Virus record (IMG/VR): IMGVR_UViG_2698536450_000021
Location: 1 to 34,493 of that record
Length of the DNA stretch: 34,493 nt
Reading direction: 5' to 3' (one strand)
Source of the DNA: a virus
Lineage: Duplodnaviria > Heunggongvirae > Uroviricota > Caudoviricetes
Shown here in pieces: positions 4,178 through 29,600 of this stretch (the stretch's first letter is position 1; each line of letters starts with the position of its first letter). The position numbers and the translations under genes were made by a program. The notes below the pieces were generated by a model. That model had not been told where the DNA came from. It was given only the letters and a program-made list of their open reading frames with translations, and did not search any database.

Positions 4178-4366
4178 ATGCAGGACTATTTTTTGGAGTC
4201 TTTGAAGCTCCAGCGCATTGATTTTTTTCTTAAGCTTGTAGCGGCTAGTGAGTGTAGTGATGAAGAGAAGGGGCTGGCTCTGCAGTGGGTTTCTGAACTG
4301 ACAGATGAACTCATGGCAAAAATCAGAACCCACGAATACAACCGCTCAATGGATGTCATCAGCTGA
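4178..4366 (+). CDS. small hypothetical protein (62 aa), first gene of the putative SOS-controlled operon
   Basis: ORF with strong RBS (AGGAGG 4169-4174) directly downstream of the LexA box; no recognisable domain. Confidence 0.45.
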   Translation: MQDYFLESLKLQRIDFFLKLVAASECSDEEKGLALQWVSELTDELMAKIRTHEYNRSMDVIS

Positions 4367-4376
4367 GGTGACTTTT

Positions 4377-4610
4377 ATGCGCATTGAAATAATGATCGAT
4401 AAAGAGCAGAAGATTAGCCAGTCTACACTGGACGCCCTTGAATCCGAGCTTTACCGCAATCTGCGCCCCCTGTATCCCAAAACGGTAATTCGTATTCGCA
4501 AAGGTAGCTCTAACGGTGTGGAACTGACCGGACTGCAACTGGACGAAGAAAGAAAACAAGTGATGAAAATTATGCAGAAGGTGTGGGAAGACGACAGCTG
4601 GCTGCATTAA
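4377..4610 (+). CDS. DinI-like protein (phage Tum/DinI family)
   Basis: 77 aa; MRIE...DALESEL...KIMQKVWEDDSW aligns by eye along its length with E. coli DinI. ATG at 4377; the track ORF from 4305 is an upstream extension. Confidence 0.75.
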   Translation: MRIEIMIDKEQKISQSTLDALESELYRNLRPLYPKTVIRIRKGSSNGVELTGLQLDEERKQVMKIMQKVWEDDSWLH

Positions 4611-4885: not shown

Positions 4886-6832
<1,947 letters not shown>

Positions 6833-7902: not shown

Positions 7903-9665
7903 AAAATCTCCACAATATTGCTGGTATTGGCGGACTCGCCCTGCAGCGGTTCGTTAAACAGTGCGTGCATTGTTGCCCAGGCCAGATCGGCATGGCTGGC
8001 TTCTTCGCTGCGGCTGGCTTCATAGGTCGGGCGGTTGCCACTGGCAGTGGTAGCGCGACGGATTGCCATAAATGACTGCGCAATGTCGGTGTGCCCGGCG
8101 TCAAACTCCAGACGGCGGTGGCTGATAATGTCGTAGGCCTTGAGTACCAGGGCGTTTTTAACGTTGGGGTTATAGACAAACTCCCTGACGGCAGGAAAAA
8201 ACGCTTTCACGTTCTCGTAAACCCCGTGACCGACGCCGGTCGAGTCGATACCGATATAGGTCACGTTATACTGTTCGGTCAGTTTTTTGATGGCGTCAGC
8301 CTGGGCGCGGAAGTCCATCCCGCGCCACTGGTGACGCTCAAGAATGCGGAACTTACCACCCGGCACGGCTGGCGGAGCCACCACCACGCATCCGGCACTG
8401 TCGCCGTTCTGCGTACCTTTTGCCGGGTCATAACCGATCCACACTTCGCGCCAGCCAAACGGGTGCAGGGCCAGTGCATGAAAGTCGGTCCAGACTTCCC
8501 AGCTGTCCACCATGCACGCCTGCAGTTCGCTGAGCGGGAACACGGACGCGAGATCGTCCACGAACTCGCACATCAGCAGGTTCTGGTATTCGTCCGGGCT
8601 GTACTCCATGCGCAGCTGGTCGAGGTCGAACAGGTTACAGCCGCCGCGCACCGCATCTTCCACGGTGACTATCTGGCGGTATTGCCCGTCTGCGCACAGC
8701 AGGCCGGGGGCCAGATTGCTGTGGGACAGGTCGATGTCCACCTTGTCAGCTTTGTTGCGTCCACGGTTGAACAGCGCACCGGACCAGAACGGATAAGCAC
8801 TGTGGGTCAGGCTGGATGGCGTGGAAAAATAGGTTTGTCGCCATTTCTTGTGAATAGCCATCCCGGAAGCCACTTTGCGCAGCTCCTGGAATTTCGGTAT
8901 CCAGAAATATTCATCCAGATACAGGTTGCCGTGATAACTCTGGGCCGTGCGGGCATTGGTGCCGAGGAAGTAAAGCGTGGCTCCGTTAGGAAGCACCATC
9001 GGATCGCCTTTTAGCTCCACCTCGACTTCTTTGGCGAAGTCGATGATGTATTGTTTAAAGACGTGGGCCTGAGCCTTACTGGCAGAAAGGAAAATCTGGT
9101 TACGTCCGGTAAGCAGGGCGTCAATCAGGGCTTCACGGGCAAAATAGAAGGTCGCGCCGATCTGGCGAGACTTCAGCAGGTTGCGGATGCGGTTGGTTTT
9201 TCCGGCTTCCCACCAGTGGCGCTGGTAGTTGAACATGGAGGAATGGAAGATTTCTTCCAGCTTCTCAATCTGCTCATCGGTGAAAACATTCTTTTCCGGC
9301 TGACGGCGCGGGCCTTTGTTGCGGTTGGCGACGTTAGGGTTTAAGTCGGCTTCGTTGCCGCCATTGTTAAATTTGCCGATCCGCGCGTGGCGCTCCGACT
9401 GGCGCGCCAGCAGGTCAATCTCTTTGAAATCTTTCCCTTCTTTGTGCTCCTTCATGATGAGCTGGCAGTAGCGTGCGGCGGTGGTGAGCTGCATCTGATC
9501 CAGCGGCCCATAGTCACCCCACTTGTCGCGTTTTTTCCAGCTGTGAACGGTTGCAACTTTCTCGCCCAGCATTTCAGCAATGCGGGCTACGCGGTATCCC
9601 TGAAAGTACAGCAGCATGGCCTGCCGACGGGGATCGAGATCTGCGGGTGTCAGTGTGGTGTTCAT
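7899..9665 (-). CDS. terminase large (ATPase) subunit (P2 gpP-like)
   Basis: 588-aa ORF transcribed divergently from the capsid operon, as in P2. Confidence 0.88.
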   Translation of the reverse strand: MNTTLTPADLDPRRQAMLLYFQGYRVARIAEMLGEKVATVHSWKKRDKWGDYGPLDQMQLTTAARYCQLIMKEHKEGKDFKEIDLLARQSERHARIGKFNNGGNEADLNPNVANRNKGPRRQPEKNVFTDEQIEKLEEIFHSSMFNYQRHWWEAGKTNRIRNLLKSRQIGATFYFAREALIDALLTGRNQIFLSASKAQAHVFKQYIIDFAKEVEVELKGDPMVLPNGATLYFLGTNARTAQSYHGNLYLDEYFWIPKFQELRKVASGMAIHKKWRQTYFSTPSSLTHSAYPFWSGALFNRGRNKADKVDIDLSHSNLAPGLLCADGQYRQIVTVEDAVRGGCNLFDLDQLRMEYSPDEYQNLLMCEFVDDLASVFPLSELQACMVDSWEVWTDFHALALHPFGWREVWIGYDPAKGTQNGDSAGCVVVAPPAVPGGKFRILERHQWRGMDFRAQADAIKKLTEQYNVTYIGIDSTGVGHGVYENVKAFFPAVREFVYNPNVKNALVLKAYDIISHRRLEFDAGHTDIAQSFMAIRRATTASGNRPTYEASRSEEASHADLAWATMHALFNEPLQGESANTSNIVEIF

Positions 9666-20478: not shown

Positions 20479-21137
20479 GCTTCCATAAGGATTATAAAAT
20501 GTCGAGCATAATATACTACAGCTCTATAAATAATGCATTTTACCCTGAGCATTTGAAACAAGAATATATTAAATCTAATTCTTTTCCAGCAGATGCAAAA
20601 CCCGTTAAATATTCTGTTTTCGAAGAATTTGCACTTAAACCAGCACCAGAAGGAAAATACAGGTGCGTTGGTGAAGATGGAATGCCATCATGGGCAGATA
20701 TTCCACCACCAACACATGAGGAACAGATTGCCGCAGCCGAATTGAAAAAGCAGCAATTGATTAACCAGGTCAACGAATACATGAACAGTAAACAATGGCC
20801 CGGTAAAGCGGCTATTGGTCGTCTGAAAGGTGAGGAACTGGCGCAATATAATTTGTGGCTGGATTATCTGGACGCACTGGAACTGGTTGATACCTCCAGT
20901 GCTCCAGATATTGAATGGCCTACGCCTCCGGCAGTTCAGGCCAGATGACATCCGGCGCGGTGCTGGTATCTGTTGCCGTCACCGCGTCAATGTAATCCAG
21001 CACGGCGTTAAGTCGGGTGTTTTCTGTCTGCGTCAGCTTCCGCCCGGCCTGTAATTTCAGTTGAATCAGACTGATAGAAGCCATTGCAGCATCAATCAGC
21101 GACTGGCGCTGTGCTTCTGCCGCTTCTACTGCGGCGC
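20140..21137. repeat. 998-bp perfect inverted repeat, left arm (variable H cassette A + Tfa-A + inverted 3' fragment of Tfa-B); partner at 22704-23701
   Basis: Paired coordinates sum to 43841; identical ORF translations appear on opposite strands in the track (e.g. 20475-20948 + and 22893-23366 -). Confidence 0.9.
20499..20948 (+). CDS. tail fibre assembly chaperone, Tfa-A (P2 gpG / Mu U-like)
   Basis: ATG at 20499 after AAGGA; conserved C-terminal Tfa block; follows the fibre gene. Confidence 0.8.
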   Translation: MSSIIYYSSINNAFYPEHLKQEYIKSNSFPADAKPVKYSVFEEFALKPAPEGKYRCVGEDGMPSWADIPPPTHEEQIAAAELKKQQLINQVNEYMNSKQWPGKAAIGRLKGEELAQYNLWLDYLDALELVDTSSAPDIEWPTPPAVQAR

Positions 21138-21138
21138 A

Positions 21139-21821
21139 TGCTGATTACCAGCAGTACGGACAATATCACCCTGAAAATCGACCCTGCTGTAGTGCTGGCA
21201 ACCCGTAAATACGTGGATGATGAAGTCCTGGAATTAAAGCTGTATGTGGATGACCAGATGAGAAACCACATTGCCGCACAAGATCCTCATACCCAGTATG
21301 CGCAGAAACATAATCCGACATTTACCGGAGAACCAAAAGCGCCGACGCCTGCAGCAGGAAATAACACCACGCGGATTGCGACCACTGAGTTTGTTCAGGC
21401 CGCTATTACTGCTCTGATTAACGGTGCGCCAGCCACGCTGGACACACTGAAAGAAATTGCCGCAGCCATTAACAATGACCCGAAATTCAGTACCACCATT
21501 AACAATGCGCTGGCACTAAAAGCGCCGCTGTCGAGTCCGGCACTCACCGGAACGCCAACAGCACCTACTGCGGCGCAGTCGGTCAACAATACACAGATTG
21601 CCACTACGGCTTTTGTGAAATCGGCGATTGCAGGAATGGTGGGTTCTGCACCTGCGGCACTGGATACACTGAACGAACTGGCGGCGGCACTGGGGAATGA
21701 TCCGAACTTTGCCACGACAATGCTTAATGCGCTGGCAGGTAAACAACCGCTGGACAATACGCTTACCAATTTGAGCGGAAAGGATGTATCTGGTCTTCTC
21801 ACATACCTTGGTTTGGGAGAA
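21139..21821. repeat. 683-bp direct repeat, copy 2 (truncated duplicate of the H middle region, ending in crossover site 3)
   Basis: Identical to 19457-20139; junction with the upstream inverted-repeat arm at 21131-21143. Confidence 0.85.
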
Positions 21822-22319
21822 GGTTCGGCATTACCCGTTGGTGTGCCTGTTCCGTGGCCTTCCGCCACTCCGCCAACAGGCTGGCTGAAATGCAACGGTG
21901 CAGCATTTTCTGCTGAAGAATACCCGGAACTGGCAAAGGCTTACCCGACAAATAAATTGCCTGATTTACGTGGTGAGTTTATTCGTGGCTGGGATGACGG
22001 ACGTGGTATGGATACGGGGAGGGCAATATTATCAGCTCAGGGCGATGCCATACGTAATATCTATGGTGAGTTCAGAACTGTAAACACTGAAAATTATTCA
22101 ATATGGGAAACAGCAGGCTCGTTTAAGGGGGCCATAGTGCCATTGAGTCCCTCTACAAACAATAGTTATTTCTCCTTAACCAGAAGTATGGTGACAGAAA
22201 GAGCAGACGGCGCTGTTTACCCAAAAGTGATTGGCCTTGATGCTTCAAGAATTGTTCCAACTGCAAACGAAAATCGACCCCGTAACATTGCCTTTAATTA
22301 TATCGTGAGGGCTGCCTGA
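21139..22319 (+). CDS. promoterless alternative tail-fibre cassette: duplicated H middle segment fused to a distinct C-terminal domain (cassette B)
   Basis: In-frame continuation through site 3 into a different C-terminus (GSALPVGVPVPWPSATPPTGWLKCNGAAFSAEEYPELA...), a collar/receptor-binding-type tail-fibre end; lacks the H N-terminus, so probably silent in this configuration. Confidence 0.55.
21796..21821. repeat. gix/hix-like crossover site 3 (identical to site 1, direct orientation)
   Basis: Same 26 bp as 20114-20139; sequence diverges from the H copy immediately after it (variable cassette B). Confidence 0.6.
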
Positions 22320-22921
22320 TGGAGAAAGCTATATTAAATAAGGAACTCATCGCCACAAAGGCGGGAGATATTACCGTTTATAATTATGATGGTGAAACGC
22401 GGGAATATATTTCTACATCAACTGAATATCTTGCTGTTGGCGTCGGTATCCCGGCATGTTCTTGTTTAGATGCGCCAGTTACACATAAAGCTGGTTATGC
22501 TATCTGCCGCTCAGCAGATTTTAACTCATGGGAATATGTGCCAGACCATCGCGGTGAAATTGTCTATAACACCGAAACGGGAGATGCCAAAGAAATCACA
22601 GCACCAGGCGACTATCCCGAAAAAACAACCACTCTCGCACCGTTAACGCCATACGATAAATGGGATGGTGAGAAATGGGTGACCGATACTGAGGCACAGC
22701 ATAGCGCCGCAGTAGAAGCGGCAGAAGCACAGCGCCAGTCGCTGATTGATGCTGCAATGGCTTCTATCAGTCTGATTCAACTGAAATTACAGGCCGGGCG
22801 GAAGCTGACGCAGACAGAAAACACCCGACTTAACGCCGTGCTGGATTACATTGACGCGGTGACGGCAACAGATACCAGCACCGCGCCGGATGTCATCTGG
22901 CCTGAACTGCCGGAGGCGTAG
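22319..22921 (+). CDS. tail fibre assembly chaperone, Tfa-B (paired with cassette B)
   Basis: 200 aa, C-terminal block TAPDVIWPELPEA similar to Tfa-A; 3' end overlaps the inverted Tfa-A' gene convergently by 29 bp. Confidence 0.8.
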   Translation: MEKAILNKELIATKAGDITVYNYDGETREYISTSTEYLAVGVGIPACSCLDAPVTHKAGYAICRSADFNSWEYVPDHRGEIVYNTETGDAKEITAPGDYPEKTTTLAPLTPYDKWDGEKWVTDTEAQHSAAVEAAEAQRQSLIDAAMASISLIQLKLQAGRKLTQTENTRLNAVLDYIDAVTATDTSTAPDVIWPELPEA

Positions 22922-23342
22922 GCCATTCAATATCTGGAGCACTGGAGGTATCAACCAGTTCCAGTGCGTCCAGATAATCCAGCCACAAATTATATTGCGC
23001 CAGTTCCTCACCTTTCAGACGACCAATAGCCGCTTTACCGGGCCATTGTTTACTGTTCATGTATTCGTTGACCTGGTTAATCAATTGCTGCTTTTTCAAT
23101 TCGGCTGCGGCAATCTGTTCCTCATGTGTTGGTGGTGGAATATCTGCCCATGATGGCATTCCATCTTCACCAACGCACCTGTATTTTCCTTCTGGTGCTG
23201 GTTTAAGTGCAAATTCTTCGAAAACAGAATATTTAACGGGTTTTGCATCTGCTGGAAAAGAATTAGATTTAATATATTCTTGTTTCAAATGCTCAGGGTA
23301 AAATGCATTATTTATAGAGCTGTAGTATATTATGCTCGACAT
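22893..23342 (-). CDS. tail fibre assembly chaperone, Tfa-A' (identical inverted copy of Tfa-A)
   Basis: Track ORF 22893-23366 (-) translates identically to 20475-20948 (+). Confidence 0.8.
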   Translation of the reverse strand: MSSIIYYSSINNAFYPEHLKQEYIKSNSFPADAKPVKYSVFEEFALKPAPEGKYRCVGEDGMPSWADIPPPTHEEQIAAAELKKQQLINQVNEYMNSKQWPGKAAIGRLKGEELAQYNLWLDYLDALELVDTSSAPDIEWPTPPAVQAR

Positions 23343-23362
23343 TTTATAATCCTTATGGAAGC

Positions 23363-23701
23363 TCAATATCCCAGTACCAGAAAATCACCTGTTTCAGTTG
23401 CGGCTGAAGTTGATATAGTCCTTGCAGCACAAATGGCCTTTAATTCTGTTTTTGTTAGTTCGGACACTCCCCAGGAATTAATACCTATTGGGCCTGTGGA
23501 TACTGCGGTTTTTTCAGCAATAAATGCCATAAATGCAGAATTTGGAAAAGCAATAGGATAACTTCCTGTTGCAACACCAGTTTTACTATCAGAAGGTCCG
23601 ATTCTTCCCCATTGGATAATAAAAGACTTCCCCTCTATAACAGGGATTTTTATCCAGCCAGATGATGATAAAGAGCCACTAATCGCAGGCAATTTGGCCG
23701 C
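23363..23701 (-). CDS. inverted copy of variable tail-fibre C-terminal cassette A (start-less cassette that would be fused to H after inversion)
   Basis: Track ORF 23363-23755 (-) translates to the same C-terminal 113 aa as H (AAKLPAISGSL...FLVLGY). Confidence 0.7.
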   Translation of the reverse strand, partial: AAKLPAISGSLSSSGWIKIPVIEGKSFIIQWGRIGPSDSKTGVATGSYPIAFPNSAFMAFIAEKTAVSTGPIGINSWGVSELTKTELKAICAARTISTSAATETGDFLVLGY

Positions 23702-23727
23702 TTCTCCCAAACCAACGTTTAAGAAAA
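23702..23727. repeat. gix/hix-like crossover site 2 (inverted relative to sites 1 and 3)
   Basis: TTCTCCCAAACC AA CGTTTAAGAAAA; its inner half-site is the reverse complement of the inner half of site 1; lies 55 bp upstream of the invertase start. Confidence 0.55.
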
Positions 23728-23782
23728 TGCAGCGATTACGACTAACTGGCATCATCCCCGGTTTTTATTCAGGGGATTGATC

Positions 23783-24349
23783 ATGCTTATTGGCTATGTA
23801 CGCGTGTCAACAAATGACCAGAACACCGATTTGCAACGTAATGCACTGAACTGCGCGGGATGTGAGCGGATTTTTGAGGACAAAATCAGTGGCACTAAGT
23901 CCGACAGACCGGGGCTTAAAAAACTGCTCAGGACACTATCGGCAGGTGACACACTGGTTGTCTGGAAGCTGGACAGGTTGGGGCGCAGTATGCGGCATCT
24001 CGTTACGCTGATAGAAGATCTGCGCCAGCGTGGCGTGAATTTCCGAAGCCTGACTGACAGTATTGATACCAGTACCTCAATGGGCCGTTTCTTTTTTCAT
24101 GTCATGGGGGCCCTGGCTGAAATGGAACGCGAACTGATAGTTGAACGTACCAGGGCAGGGCTGGCTGCAGCTCGCGCCAAAGGCAGAGTAGGTGGACGCC
24201 GTCCTAAGTTGACTACCGAACAGTGGGCACAGATTGGACGTTTACTCGAGGCCGGAGAATCAAGACAGCGTATTGCACTGATTTTTGATGTGGGCGTTTC
24301 TACCATTTATAGAAAATTTCCGGCGAATGAGAACAATGAATCGCCCTGA
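23783..24349 (+). CDS. serine-recombinase DNA invertase (Gin/Pin/Cin/Hin family)
   Basis: MLIGYVRVSTNDQNTDLQRNAL... with catalytic Ser in the YVRVS motif and a C-terminal HTH; near-collinear by eye with Gin/Pin. Confidence 0.9.
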   Translation: MLIGYVRVSTNDQNTDLQRNALNCAGCERIFEDKISGTKSDRPGLKKLLRTLSAGDTLVVWKLDRLGRSMRHLVTLIEDLRQRGVNFRSLTDSIDTSTSMGRFFFHVMGALAEMERELIVERTRAGLAAARAKGRVGGRRPKLTTEQWAQIGRLLEAGESRQRIALIFDVGVSTIYRKFPANENNESP

Positions 24350-24397
24350 GTCAGCATTATTTTGATTTTTCCTGTAAGCGGACAAATACCGTTATTT

Positions 24398-24415
24398 TGT
24401 GTGAATAACGACACA
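24398..24415. promoter_or_regulatory. Ogr-type late-promoter dyad TGT-N12-ACA upstream of the tail sheath operon
   Basis: TGTGTGAATAACGACACA, 77 bp upstream of the FI start. Confidence 0.45.
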
Positions 24416-24491
24416 ACTGCGCTTAGCTGTTTGTCAGGCACAATCACTTCAACATAGGGCGAAGCCTAATCCAATCAGGAGGTTCGCCACT

Positions 24492-25664
24492 ATGGCTCAG
24501 GATTACCACCACGGAGTGCGCGTTGTTGAAGTCAACGAAGGCACCCGATCCATTACCACGGTGAGCACCGCCATCGTGGGTATGGTCTGCACGGGCGATG
24601 ATGCCGATGCAAAAATGTTTCCTCTTAATAAACCCGTGCTGATCACTGATGTGCTGACTGCCAGCGGTAAAGCGGGTGAGTCCGGTACGCTGGCCCGTTC
24701 GCTGGACGCCATCGCTGACCAGGCAAAACCCGTGACCGTTGTTGTGCGTGTGCCGCAGGGTGAAACGGAAGAAGAAACCACGACCAATATCATCGGAGCA
24801 GTGACCGCTGAAGGTAAAAAAACAGGCATGAAAGCCCTGTTATCTGCCCAGTCACAGCTCGGCGTTAAACCGCGCATTCTCGGCGTGCCAGGTCACGATA
24901 ACAAAGCCGTTGCTACTGAGTTGCTGAGTGTGGCGCAAAGCCTGCGTGGGTTTGCTTACCTGTCAGCGTATGGCTGCAAGACGGTGCAGGAGGCGATCAC
25001 TTACCGTGAAAACTTCAGCCAGCGCGAAGGAATGCTGATCTGGCCCGACTTTACTGGCTGGGACACGGTGCTGAATGCCGAAGCAACGGCATATGCCACC
25101 GCCCGTGCGCTTGGTCTGCGCGCAAAAATTGACGAGCAGACCGGATGGCACAAAAGCCTGTCCAATGTGGGCGTTAACGGTGTCACCGGAATTTCTGCTG
25201 ATGTGTTCTGGGATCTGCAGGACACGGCAACCGATGCTGGACTGCTGAACCAGAACGACGTCACCACCCTTATCCGCAAAGACGGTTTCCGCTTCTGGGG
25301 TTCCCGCTGCCTGAGTGATGACCCGCTCTTTGCCTTCGAAAACTACACCCGCACGGCGCAGGTGCTGATGGACACGATGGCAGAAGCACACATGTGGGCG
25401 GTGGATAAACCGCTTAACCCGTCGCTGGCCCGGGACATTATCGAAGGTATCCGCGCCAAAATGCGCAGCCTGGTCAGTCAGGGCTATCTCATTGGTGGCG
25501 ATTGCTGGCTGGATGAGTCGGTGAACGACAAAGACACTCTGAAAGCCGGAAAACTCACCATCGATTACGACTACACGCCAGTGCCACCACTTGAAAACCT
25601 GATGCTGCGTCAGCGCATCACCGATCAGTACCTGGTGAATTTCGCCAGCCAGGTCAGCGCGTAA
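24492..25664 (+). CDS. contractile tail sheath protein (P2 gpFI-like)
   Basis: 390 aa; size and position after the tail-fibre genes match FI. Confidence 0.88.
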
Positions 25665-25673
25665 GGGGACAAC

Positions 25674-26189
25674 ATGGCTTTACCACGTAAATTAAAACAC
25701 CTGAACCTGTTTAACGACGGGAATAACTGGCAGGGGATCGTTGAGTCGCTGACGCTGCCGAAATTCACCCGCAAATATGAGAAGTATCGCGGCGGCGGAA
25801 TGCCGGGTGCAGTGGATGTGGATCTGGGGCTTGATGACAGTGCGCTGGACACAGAATTTTCCATTGGTGGTACTGAACTGCTGCTGTTTAAACAGATGGG
25901 CAAAGCCACGGTGGATGGCATCCAGTTGCGCTTTACCGGCTCTATCCAGCGTGATGATACCGGGGAAGTGCAGGCCGTGGAGCTTGTGGTGCGTGGACGT
26001 CACAAAGAAGTGGATTCCGGCGAGTGGAAGACGGGCGAAAGCAACACCACCAAAGTGACCAGTACCAACAGCTACGCGAAGCTGACTATCAATGGTGAGG
26101 TGCTCTATGAAGTGGACCTTATCAACATGGTGGAAATTGTGGACGGTGTGGACTTGATGGAAGCGCACCGCAACGCCCTCGGCCTCTGA
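25674..26189 (+). CDS. tail tube protein (P2 gpFII-like)
   Basis: 171 aa directly after the sheath gene. Confidence 0.88.
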   Translation: MALPRKLKHLNLFNDGNNWQGIVESLTLPKFTRKYEKYRGGGMPGAVDVDLGLDDSALDTEFSIGGTELLLFKQMGKATVDGIQLRFTGSIQRDDTGEVQAVELVVRGRHKEVDSGEWKTGESNTTKVTSTNSYAKLTINGEVLYEVDLINMVEIVDGVDLMEAHRNALGL

Positions 26190-26243
26190 TGTATCTGAAC
26201 GGCGCGGAATGCCGCGCCAGAACCCAATTTACAGGACAGCAAA

Positions 26244-26546
26244 ATGAGCGATAAGCAGACTGAAAAGACCATTCTACTGGATACCCCCATCATGCGTGGT
26301 AAAACAGAAATTACCGAAATTGTGCTGCGTAAACCGCAGTCCGGTGCGCTGCGCGGTACACGCCTGCAGGCCATTATGGATATGGATGTGAACGCGATGA
26401 TGACCGTGATCCCCCGCATCTCCAGCCCGGCGCTGACTGCACAGGAAATTGCAGAGATGGACCCGGCAGATCTCACTGCCATGTCGGTTGAGGTTGTCAC
26501 TTTTTTGTTGAAGAAGTCGGTGCTTGCCGGTTTACCGACAGCCTGA
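26244..26546 (+). CDS. tail assembly chaperone E (P2 gpE-like)
   Basis: 100-aa ORF before the tape-measure gene, containing a slippery heptamer near its 3' end. Confidence 0.8.
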   Translation: MSDKQTEKTILLDTPIMRGKTEITEIVLRKPQSGALRGTRLQAIMDMDVNAMMTVIPRISSPALTAQEIAEMDPADLTAMSVEVVTFLLKKSVLAGLPTA

Positions 26547-26680
26547 CGGTTGACGATCTGGTGGCAGATATCGCCACCATTTTTCACTGGCCGCCATCCG
26601 TTACTGACGTTATGCCGCTGACCGAAGTGCTGGAATGGCGGTATAAAGCGATTCAGAGAAGCGGGGCTAACGATGAGTGA
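26244..26680 (+). CDS. E+E' frameshift-extended tail chaperone (programmed -1 frameshift at T TTT TTG, 26501-26507)
   Basis: Slippery heptamer in the 0 frame of E; the -1 frame stays open to TGA at 26678-26680, overlapping the tape-measure start, as in P2 E/E'. Confidence 0.6.
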
Positions 26681-29600
26681 TAATAACCTGCGCCTGCAGG
26701 TCATTCTTAATGCGGTTGACAAACTCACCCGCCCATTCCGTGCTGCACAGGCCAGTTCGAAAGAGCTGGCTGGCGCAATTCAGAATACCCGAAACAGCCT
26801 CAAAGAATTGAATAAGCAGGCTGGCAGAATTGATGAATTTCGCAAGACGCGCTCGCAACTAGCCATAACAGCCAACAACCTGAACGCAGCCCGCGAAGAG
26901 GCGGCAAAACTCGCCACACAATTTGCTGCCACTAACAGGCCAACCGCCGCGCAGGCAAAGTTATTCAGTCAGGCCAAAACACGAGTACAGGAACTTCAGC
27001 AGACCTATAACGGCTTGTTGGGGGCGGTCCAGAGACAACGTCAGGCACTTAAAGAATCAGGGATTGATACCAGACAACTCAGTAGTGCCCAGCGAGAACT
27101 TAAGAAAAATGCTGAAGAAACAAGGCAGGCACTGGAGGGCCAGCAAAAAGCACTTAAACGTCTGGGTGAGCAACAGGCACGGATGAACGCTGCCAGAGAA
27201 CAATACTCAAGACGGCTTGAAGTGCGCGATCGCATCGCAGGAGCCGGAGCCACTACCACGGCTGCAGGGCTGGCAATGGGTGCGCCAGTGATGGCGGCAG
27301 TAAAAAGCTATACCAGCATGGAAGATGCCATGAAAGGTGTGGCAAAGCAGGTCAATGGTCTGCGTGACGATAATGGCAACCGCACTGCACGTTTTTATGA
27401 AATGCAGGATGCCATCAAGGCTGCCAGCGAACAGTTGCCGATGGAAAACGGTGCGGTGGACTTCGCTGCACTGGTTGAAGGTGGTGCGCGCATGAACGTC
27501 GCAAACCCTGACGACAGTTGGGAAGACCAGAAACGTGACCTGCTGGCCTTCGCCAGTACGGCAGCAAAGGCGGCAACAGCCTTTGAGCTGCCAGCGGATG
27601 AACTGTCAGAAAGTCTGGGGAAAATCGCCCAGCTCTACAAAATACCTACCCGCAATATTGAACAGCTCGGCGATGCGCTGAACTATCTGGATGATAACGC
27701 CATGTCGAAAGGGGCGGACATCATTGATGTGATGCAACGTCTGGGCGGTGTGGCTGACCGTCTGGATTATCGTAAAGCGGCGGCACTGGGTTCCACCTTT
27801 CTGACACTGGGTGCTGCGCCGGAGGTTGCAGCCAGTGCAGCAAACGCGATGGTGCGTGAATTGTCCATTGCCACCATGCAAAGCAAGAGTTTCTTTGAAG
27901 GGATGAATCTGCTGAAACTCAATCCTGAAGTGATTGAAAAGCAGATGACGAAGGATGCGATGGGAACTATCCAGCGTGTGCTGGAGAAGGTGAACGCACT
28001 GCCGCAGGACAAGCGTCTGTCTGCCATGACCATGTTGTTTGGTAAAGAGTTTGGTGATGATGCAGCGAAACTGGCGAACAACCTTCCGGAACTGCAGCGC
28101 CAGCTAAAACTGACAGCGGGCAATGATGCGCTCGGTTCCATGCAGAAAGAATCCGACATCAACAAAGACTCACTTTCCGCTCAGTGGTTGCTGGTCAAAA
28201 CCGGAGCGCAGAACACCTTCAGCAGCCTGGGCGAAACGCTGCGCCAGCCGCTGATGGATATTCTGTACACGGTGAAAAGCATTACGGGGGCGTTGCGCCG
28301 CTGGGTGGAAGCTAACCCGGAACTGACAGGCACACTGATGAAAGTAGCGGCTGTTGTGGCTGCGGTTACCGTAGGCCTCGGCACCTTAGCGGTGGCGCTG
28401 GCTGCAGTGCTGGGGCCGCTGGCAGTGATCCGTCTGGGATTCTCTGTGCTGGGTATCAAAACGTTACCTTCCGTTACGGCAGCAGTAACTCGAACCAGCA
28501 ACGCGTTGTCCTGGCTGGCTGGCGCTCCACTGGCACTGCTGCGACGCGGGCTTGCTTCATCGGGCAACGCCGCAGGTTTACTTACTGCGCCGTTGTCGTC
28601 TTTGCGCCGCACGGCATCACTGACGGGAAATGTCCTGAAAACTGTAGCAGGTGCGCCAGTTGCACTTTTGCGGTCTGGATTATCCGGTTTACGTGCTGTT
28701 GCTGTGATGTTTATGAATCCTCTGGCGGTACTGCGCGGTGGACTGGCCGCCGCAGGCTCGGTGCTGCGAGTACTGGCATCTGGTCCACTGGCGATGCTGC
28801 GCGTTGCCCTGTATGCCGTATCTGGTCTGTTAGGTGCTCTGCTCAGTCCGATAGGTCTTGTGGTTACTGCACTGGCGGGCGTGGCGCTGGTTGTCTGGAA
28901 ATACTGGCAACCCATCACCGCATTTCTCGGTGGCGTGGTGGAAGGATTCAAAGCGGCGGCAGGTTCCGTCAGTGAAGCATTCGAACCGCTTAAGCCCGTG
29001 TTCCAGTGGATTGGCGACAAAGTACAGGCGCTGTGGGACTGGTTTACTGATCTGCTGACGCCTGTTAAGTCGACCTCTGCCGAACTGCAGAGTGCAGCGG
29101 CAATGGGGCGACGATTCGGGGAGGCACTGGCGGAAGGGCTGAATATGGTCATGCATCCGCTGGACTCCCTGAAATCCGGCGTTTCCTGGTTGCTTGATAA
29201 ACTCGGCATTGTCAGTAAAGAGGCTGCAAAGGCGAAACTGCCGGAAAGCGTGACGCGTCAGCAACCTGCGACGGTGAATGCAGACGGTAAAGTGATGATG
29301 CCATCGGGTGGTTTTCCGTCATGGGGATATGGCTTTGCGGGGATGTATGACAGCGGCGGCTATATCCCGCGCGGGCAGTTCGGCATTGTCGGTGAAAACG
29401 GGCCTGAAATTGTCAACGGTCCGGCAAACGTGACCAGCCGGAGAAATACAGCTGCACTGGCTGCGGTTGTCGCCGGAATGATGGGCGTTGCTGCCGCGCC
29501 AGCAGAGCTTCCACCGTTACATCCTTTGGCGCTTCCCGCGAAAGGCGGCGAAGCGATGGTGAGTCGCGCAGCTACAGTGCCGCCCGTTCACCGGATTGAG

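Follow-up and report, generated by a model that had tools for sequence, protein, structure and literature searches.

Why should a prophage with an intact tail-fibre gene carry, a little further downstream, a second fibre tip with a chaperone of its own and only part of a fibre gene in front of it? The question is raised by positions 21822-22921 of the window, by which we mean the whole stretch of viral DNA analysed here (34,493 nucleotides) and whose gene content is that of the late region of a P2-like prophage of E. coli with a retron-Ec67-type gene. We suggest, with a probability of roughly 0.9, that these positions are one of the two 3' cassettes of a Pin-type invertible fibre segment, and that the third recombination site and the truncated copy of fibre gene H that accompany them are artefacts of scaffolding. 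Most likely, the real locus has two sites and one 1.9-kb segment, both orientations of which were present in the culture that was sequenced. Cassette B would then most likely be phase-variable rather than permanently silent, being silent only in that fraction of cells in which the segment joins the other tip, tip A, to H (A-on, as opposed to B-on).

The cassette itself is well defined. Position 21822 is base 1 of the first codon of tip B and position 22921 is the final base of the TfaB stop codon, with the two frames meeting at 22319, where the TfaB start codon overlaps the tip B stop; directly upstream, the cassette adjoins a 26-bp crossover site (21796-21821). Translation of tip B gives GSALPVGVPVPWPSATPPTGWLKCNGAAFSAEEYPELA...NYIVRAA* over 165 codons with no internal stop, and both ORFs are full length and free of inactivating mutations. 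A domain search placed a Phage Tail Collar domain (PF07484, E=2.9e-15) in tip B and assigned TfaB to Caudo_TAP, the family of lambda Tfa, Mu U and e14 TfaE, its gene lying directly 3' of its tip; we infer that TfaB folds tip B. When tip B was searched by sequence against solved structures, residues 4-163 matched a short tail fiber (9cuy, E=3.4e-25) and the N-terminal 60-80 residues matched chains of T4 gp37 (2xgf) and gp12; the same search returned no useful match for TfaB or tip A. The nearest matches of tip B are Salmonella phage MET_P1_103_31 (96%), the HK97 Stf tip (67%) and 9cuy. As sequence similarities, the matches of tip B to PF07484, of TfaB to PF02413 and of the cassette to known fibres are far above chance.

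Cassette B is also not peculiar to this prophage. The annotated fibre C-termini of E. coli LH13-b and EcE.CRE.COL are identical to tip B (100% over 165 aa), and the chaperones beside these identical tips are 98.5-99% identical to TfaB, so that the pair is found together on both P2-type and e14/Mu-type constant parts. In LH13-b, tip B stands without a single difference, next to a TfaB of 98.5% identity, on an e14/Mu-type baseplate module, and the cassette is thus, on this distribution, a mobile unit common to different phage types.

What surrounds the cassette (Table 1) has the make-up of a switch of the Gin/Cin/Pin/Hin type. The segment encloses two opposed 3' parts of the fibre gene, each with a tfa gene, and leaves the constant 5' part outside; two inverted, imperfectly palindromic sites of about 26 bp with the same 2-bp core bound the segment; a serine recombinase with a Resolvase domain and a C-terminal HTH stands beside it; and both orientations appear to occur, in other loci and in the scaffold itself. 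The domain order read along the window is H, Tfa, Tfa(-), tip(-), Resolvase+HTH_7, and the TfaA(-)/tip A(-) layout is likewise annotated in EH09-18-41, MB19 and LH13-b. Protein H has a P2-type N-terminal domain (PF12571 at 1-150) and PF21882 at 381-466, and the exact 466-aa protein is carried by many public contigs with canonical A-on loci. The inner half of the left site, together with its core, is the published e14 P-segment repeat TTGGTTTGGGAGAAGG (PMC12529663). The invertase (PF00239, Resolvase, E=2.4e-52; HTH_7, PF02796, E=1.5e-15), whose catalytic serine is visible in its GYVRVSTNDQ motif, is 84% identical to K-12 PinE and 99.5% identical to the EH09-18-41 recombinase. Given the high identity to pinE, a Fis-dependent recombinational enhancer is likely to lie in the 5' part of the invertase gene. 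A scan for promoters and terminators around the locus returned fewer promoter-like sites than shuffled sequence. An earlier note on this DNA, made from its letters alone, had proposed that 21822-22921 holds a different tail-fibre tip with its own chaperone and that recombination can fuse this second tip to the constant part of H. Both proposals stand, the former in the intact 165-aa Collar tip and 200-aa Caudo_TAP chaperone and the latter, as a site-specific inversion that exchanges tips A and B on H, in the sites, the invertase and the layout of relatives.

Table 1. Features of the fibre locus, in window coordinates; contig ends and joint as proposed in the text.
Feature	Positions	Strand	Remarks
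Baseplate genes V, W, J, I	16654-19081		
Fibre gene H as scaffolded, 466 aa	19078-20478	+	codons 1-354 constant, 355-466 tip A (Gp53-like_C); A-on isomer, putative contig 1
Left crossover site	20114-20139	+	outer half TTCTCACATACC, 2-bp core TT, inner half GGTTTGGGAGAA
Putative end of contig 1, segment in A-on orientation (tip A, TfaA 20475/20499-20948, antisense TfaB 3' end)	20126-21137	+	second showing of the DNA at 22704-23715
Putative scaffold joint	21138		'A' in the window, 'N' in GCA_001285885.1 CYDG01000028.1
Putative start of contig 2, H codons 127-354 and crossover site	21139-21822	+	second showing of the DNA at 19457-20140
Cassette B, alternative fibre tip, 165 aa	21822-22319	+	Collar domain, then variable distal part, conserved C-terminal ...RPRNIAFNYIVRAA
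TfaB, putative tail-fibre assembly chaperone for tip B, 200 aa	22319-22921	+	Caudo_TAP, PF02413, E=5.6e-32
TfaA (22893-23366) and tip A ORF (23363-23755)	22893-23755	-	unexpressed orientation of the B-on isomer
Right crossover site	23702-23727	+	TTCTCCCAAACC AA CGTTTAAGAAAA; inverted relative to the left site
Serine DNA invertase	23777-24349	+	likely start ATG 23783 (188 aa); catalytic motif GYVRVSTNDQ

The difficulty lies in what the window places between H and cassette B. Taken literally, it is a locus in which one inversion cannot express B, two inversions or a deletion of 1,682 bp being needed. The motif TTGGTTTGGGAGAA, consisting of the 2-bp core and the inner half-site, is present in exactly three copies, at 20126 (+), 21808 (+) and 23702-23715 (-), each embedded in a 26-bp site, and two of the three lie within an exact repeat of 684 nt, in which 19457-20140 recurs in direct orientation, 100% identical, as 21139-21822. 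In addition, 20126-21137 is a perfect 1,012-nt reverse complement of 22704-23715 that ends one base before the joint, and position 21138 is the sole base between the end of this inverted repeat and the start of the direct one, the whole order being X-Y / X-B-U-Y'-invertase. Tip B is thus preceded in frame by 684 nt, corresponding to 228 codons of H (127-354), and the 411-codon ORF that results (21084-22319, H'-B) is without only H codons 1-126, which go missing exactly at the joint.

These observations change how the cassette is to be understood. The earlier note had placed B behind a bare third site, where in fact 684 nt of in-frame H sequence precede it; its statement that B lacks the N-terminus of H is correct for codons 1-126 and fails for codons 127-354, the gap between the two falling at the scaffold joint. 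Its image of a detached, silent cassette that must be recombined onto H is, on our reading, to be given up, as the detachment is a contig joint at 21138, a base that is an N in the public contig of Table 1.

The evidence for a joint comes from public assemblies. An exact look-up of the TfaB protein in them led to L017 (GCA_001285885.1 CYDG01000028.1), which is colinear with positions 17319-27921 of the window over 10,603 nt and has a single difference, an N in place of the A at 21138. That the A is this N rendered as a base is the simplest account; the called base is a counterpoint to an artefact insofar as there may be a version of the assembly in which this base was called. N gaps are what scaffolders put between the contigs that they join, gap-filling programs lengthen contig ends with any reads that fit, and false joins can result from either (PMC5320598). 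In the sister assembly L015 (GCA_001284925.1 CYDD01000029.1), whose contig is of almost equal length, the same flanks enclose a different pseudo-duplication at the fibre locus: part of the segment stands there in one direction, and the complete segment follows in the opposite one. Its one N stands exactly at this joint; rightward of the N, the sequence starts exactly at the crossover core, the point where the A-on and B-on isomer sequences part ways. An N is present in only two of the 23 loci fetched, L017 and L015, at the joint in both. The joint, GCGGCGC-A-TGCTGATT, was also considered as the microhomology junction of an illegitimate tandem duplication; this reading was rejected on account of the N in the public contig, the apparent microhomology having hung on one arbitrary base.

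It would be possible to take the repeats at face value, as the product of a 1,682-bp tandem duplication in an A-on cell and one later inversion, which would give three sites and four isomers. Such a duplication is very unlikely in our judgement, since it would have to have occurred twice independently, each time at an ambiguous base, to account both for the N in an otherwise identical public contig and for the differing joint, again an N, in the sister assembly. The called base in the window and the open H'-B frame are what one would expect of a real duplication, and a three-repeat, four-variant inversion system is indeed known in a P2-like prophage of EPEC (PMC4272514). However, a search of 5,426 complete E. 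coli genomes did not turn up the joint, their locus being the canonical one of 3.8 kb, and of about 25 related loci that were inspected all are canonical except the two scaffolds containing an N, which alone show the duplicated layout. Spelled with 'A', the joint had no exact match among GTDB representatives, IMG/VR or JGI metagenomes, a result of little weight given that the N version would be missed too; exact look-ups of the 411-aa and 393-aa H'-B ORFs were likewise empty, as follows from the N at the joint, the ORF called in L017 being one of 402 aa that spans the N. A simulated three-site system, which applies only if the duplication exists, does form a coherent set of four isomers: three would have tip A on full-length H, and the fourth, which has tip B in that place, would take two successive inversions or a deletion of the repeat (1,682 bp) to reach, the B of the window being fused to a 5'-truncated H.

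Thus, we favour the artefact over the duplication, and the site copy at 21796-21821 is most likely the same physical site as 20114-20139. For the same reason the locus does not belong with multi-site systems (shufflon-like; Min of p15B, the EPEC three-repeat locus), which have at least three physically distinct sites: the third site here lies in the exact 684-nt repeat that starts one base after the scaffold N, and canonical relatives have two sites.

Loci in both orientations are recognizable elsewhere. With its repeat collapsed and the invertible segment turned over, the window aligns without gaps to a natural A-on locus, L010 (GCA_045072665.1), at 99.88% identity over 13.4 kb, and the natural B-on loci L014 and L023 are 99.5-100% identical to the window; with the A-on loci L010, L012 and L013 included alongside these two, the range is 99.4-100%. 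Both isomers of this prophage type exist in nature. Collapsing the repeat also yields a predicted H-B fusion of 519 aa, which has 96% identity over its whole length with WP_024235284.1, a P2-type H of 519 aa in EcE.CRE.COL, and shares its tip exactly (100%); the chaperone encoded downstream of that H (WP_060564996.1) is 99% identical to TfaB, the difference being that the EcE.CRE.COL locus has lost its invertase gene and is fixed B-on.

Could cassette B nevertheless be a relic, decayed or silenced for good, with no expression at all? Nothing in the window speaks for this, the only hints in its direction being relatives in which the switch itself is crippled: the A-on relative L011 (GCA_040813075.1) has an IS1 at 8348-9116 in its silent TfaB, and the B-on relative L006 (EcE.CRE.COL) is missing the invertase gene (4229-4507), so that both are presumably locked. 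Both ORFs of the cassette, however, are 100% and 99% identical to complete annotated proteins from genomes in which B is fused to H, and the H-B junction (query 21622-22022) is matched at no less than 80% coverage in 429 RefSeq complete E. coli genomes, a count not normalised for allele frequency. Neither of the two findings that the earlier note had named as fatal to its proposal, inactivating mutations in B or B never being joined to H, was made: the ORFs are intact, and H-B is joined in other genomes. We give the relic next to no credence.

Further support comes from the way in which assemblies of this locus break. RefSeq E. coli Z1323HEC0475 carries a prophage that differs from the window by 15 substitutions in 19 kb, with no indels (99.9% identity). 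Position 1 of its chromosome (NZ_CP148326.1) is exactly the left crossover core, and position 1 of a 42-kb 'plasmid' (NZ_CP148327.1), which contains prophage tail genes and the chromosomal gene ybjL, is exactly the right core. The interior of the invertible segment has been deposited as a further circular 'plasmid' of 1,878 bp, pZ1323HEC0475-5 (NZ_CP148330.1, our locus L003). A 'complete' genome has therefore been split at both cores, which is the effect that mixed orientations have on assemblies.

The same mixture of H-A and H-B junction reads in one read set, with assemblies broken at the sites, would also arise if a strain had two copies of the prophage in separate parts of its chromosome, one permanently A-on and the other permanently B-on, that were collapsed and strung together with no inversion at all. 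This explanation has, we think, an even smaller chance of being right than the duplication. Single, colinear flanks are seen in the window as in L017 and L015; neither site is damaged, and the invertase gene, also intact, is 99.5% identical to those of other loci; and the same breakage is seen in an unrelated strain. Inversion of segments of this kind has, moreover, been detected experimentally and is the simpler explanation.

Taken together, a Pin-type switch and two joined contigs could account for the window as follows. The constant part of H (codons 1-354) would end in a 26-bp crossover site, followed by an invertible segment of about 1.9 kb holding tip B and TfaB in one direction and, opposed to them, TfaA and tip A; beyond the segment would lie the other crossover site, in inverted orientation, and after it the gene of the serine invertase. 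The invertase would exchange strands at the 2-bp core of both sites and flip the segment, so that H would be completed either by tip B (519 aa, followed by TfaB) or by tip A (466 aa, followed by TfaA), and induced particles would carry one of two receptor specificities. In the assembly, a contig from A-on cells ending at 21137 would have been set beside a B-on contig starting at 21139 inside H, with a one-base gap at 21138. A point against this account is that the ends of these contigs (21137 and, in the coordinates of the first H copy, 19457) are not at branch points of the graph. This might be explained by gap-filling from both sides: contig 1 would have ended at the left site and been extended by about 1 kb with A-on reads, and contig 2 would have begun at tip B and been extended by about 0.68 kb leftward into H with B-on reads. 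That the contig carrying B represents the B-on isomer is indicated by its beginning at H codon 127 and reading straight through into B. Since this mode of breakage points to both orientations coexisting in the culture, inversion is probably active in the strain of this prophage.

The closest known system is the P segment of e14 in K-12 (stfP/tfaP, tfaE/stfE, pinE), which has the same arrangement of constant part, site, two opposed tip and Tfa cassettes, site and serine invertase. Previous work has shown that the e14 P-segment repeats are inverted by PinE and PinQ (PMC12529663). TfaB is 91% identical to TfaE, and the invertase stands at the 84% identity to PinE given above. Tip B and StfE are 58% identical, sharing the Collar N-terminus and the C-terminal RPRNIAFNYIVRAA and differing in the central, presumably receptor-contacting, part; an e14-like element in LH13-b carries the identical tip B. 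The two systems also differ in their setting: the segment in the window is attached to a P2-type H (PF12571), and those morphogenesis and lysis genes of its P2-like prophage that the window covers all seem intact, whereas in e14 the segment is attached to a short StfP constant part in a defective element.

The G segment of Mu (S/U, S'/U', Gin) and the C segment of P1 (Cin) follow the same logic, inversion swapping the 3' end of the fibre together with an assembly gene, although their constant parts and tip alleles are different. Inversion of Mu G and P1 C changes the host range of the phage; for the prophage described here, such a change would be expected only by analogy. The proposed mechanism as a whole, including the strand exchange, the swap of the 3' end of H with its chaperone and the two specificities, is modelled on Mu G, P1 C and e14 P, and by the same analogy the two tips may bind different receptors. 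P2-like prophages of EPEC E2348/69 likewise have an invertase-driven fibre switch (Goldberg et al. 2014, PMC4272514). Both orientations were found there to coexist in clonal cultures, as seen in sequencing reads, and PCR confirmed the four variants of the complex locus (PMC4272514). The culture behind the window was presumably in a mixed-orientation state of this kind. The difference is that one EPEC locus truly has three repeats, four variants and three tips, whereas the three sites of the window are only apparent.

Some further features of the prophage deserve mention. Sheath, tube and tape-measure genes lie downstream of the H/switch region. A DNA adenine methylase gene (757-1614, +) precedes the replication endonuclease gene in the early region, according to the annotation of the near-identical RefSeq prophage. 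Between a replication gene and the portal gene there is a low-GC insert (30-36%) at 4892/4952-6832 (+), whose protein is annotated as a retron Ec67 family reverse transcriptase/endonuclease in the RefSeq prophage of 99.9% identity, which would make this a retron-carrying P2-like phage; Rfam gave no match of the insert to an msr/msd RNA family at gathering score. A protein of 311 aa with an FRG domain (15633-16568, -) is encoded between tail gene S and baseplate gene V, and in L012 a DUF2971 protein occupies this position; with a different gene there, the position seems to be a variable cargo slot. The RybB sRNA (31716-31794, -; Rfam 105 bits) and ybjL (31874-33559, -) are chromosomal, so the right end of the prophage should lie before about 31.7 kb, beyond which the window runs into the host chromosome.

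How the two orientations are distributed among lysogens is a separate matter. The H-A junction (query 19940-20340) was present in draft assemblies and in none of the RefSeq complete E. coli genomes, again as a count not normalised for allele frequency. The figures of 429 and 0 are not used here as evidence of bias, the B count being inflated by the first 200 nt, which are conserved across B-type tips; a real orientation bias between H-B and H-A is possible. It would be tempting to go further and to suppose that the orientation of the switch does not drift but is held by selection in lysogens, with cassette B perhaps acting also as a defence determinant. We regard this idea as highly speculative and very probably wrong. 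It draws on the finding that the homologous e14 tip system, once inverted, encodes a chimeric fibre whose presence keeps phage T2 from adsorbing (PMC12529663). Should H-B and TfaB, expressed at a low level from P2-like prophages, protect the host likewise, cassette B would be a determinant of defence as well as of host range.

In summary, cassette B with TfaB is an already known feature, the exact proteins of which are annotated in other E. coli genomes, and an invertase-driven choice between two fibre tips is textbook biology. It would be a mistake to treat the window as a system with three sites or a duplication, and any finding built on its three sites, on its second, partial H or on its duplicated copies of tip A and TfaA shares the artefact of the joint. 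More generally, invertible fibre segments corrupt public assemblies in a recognizable manner, leaving pseudo-duplications joined by an N and, in a RefSeq genome deposited as 'complete', a 1.9-kb 'plasmid'.
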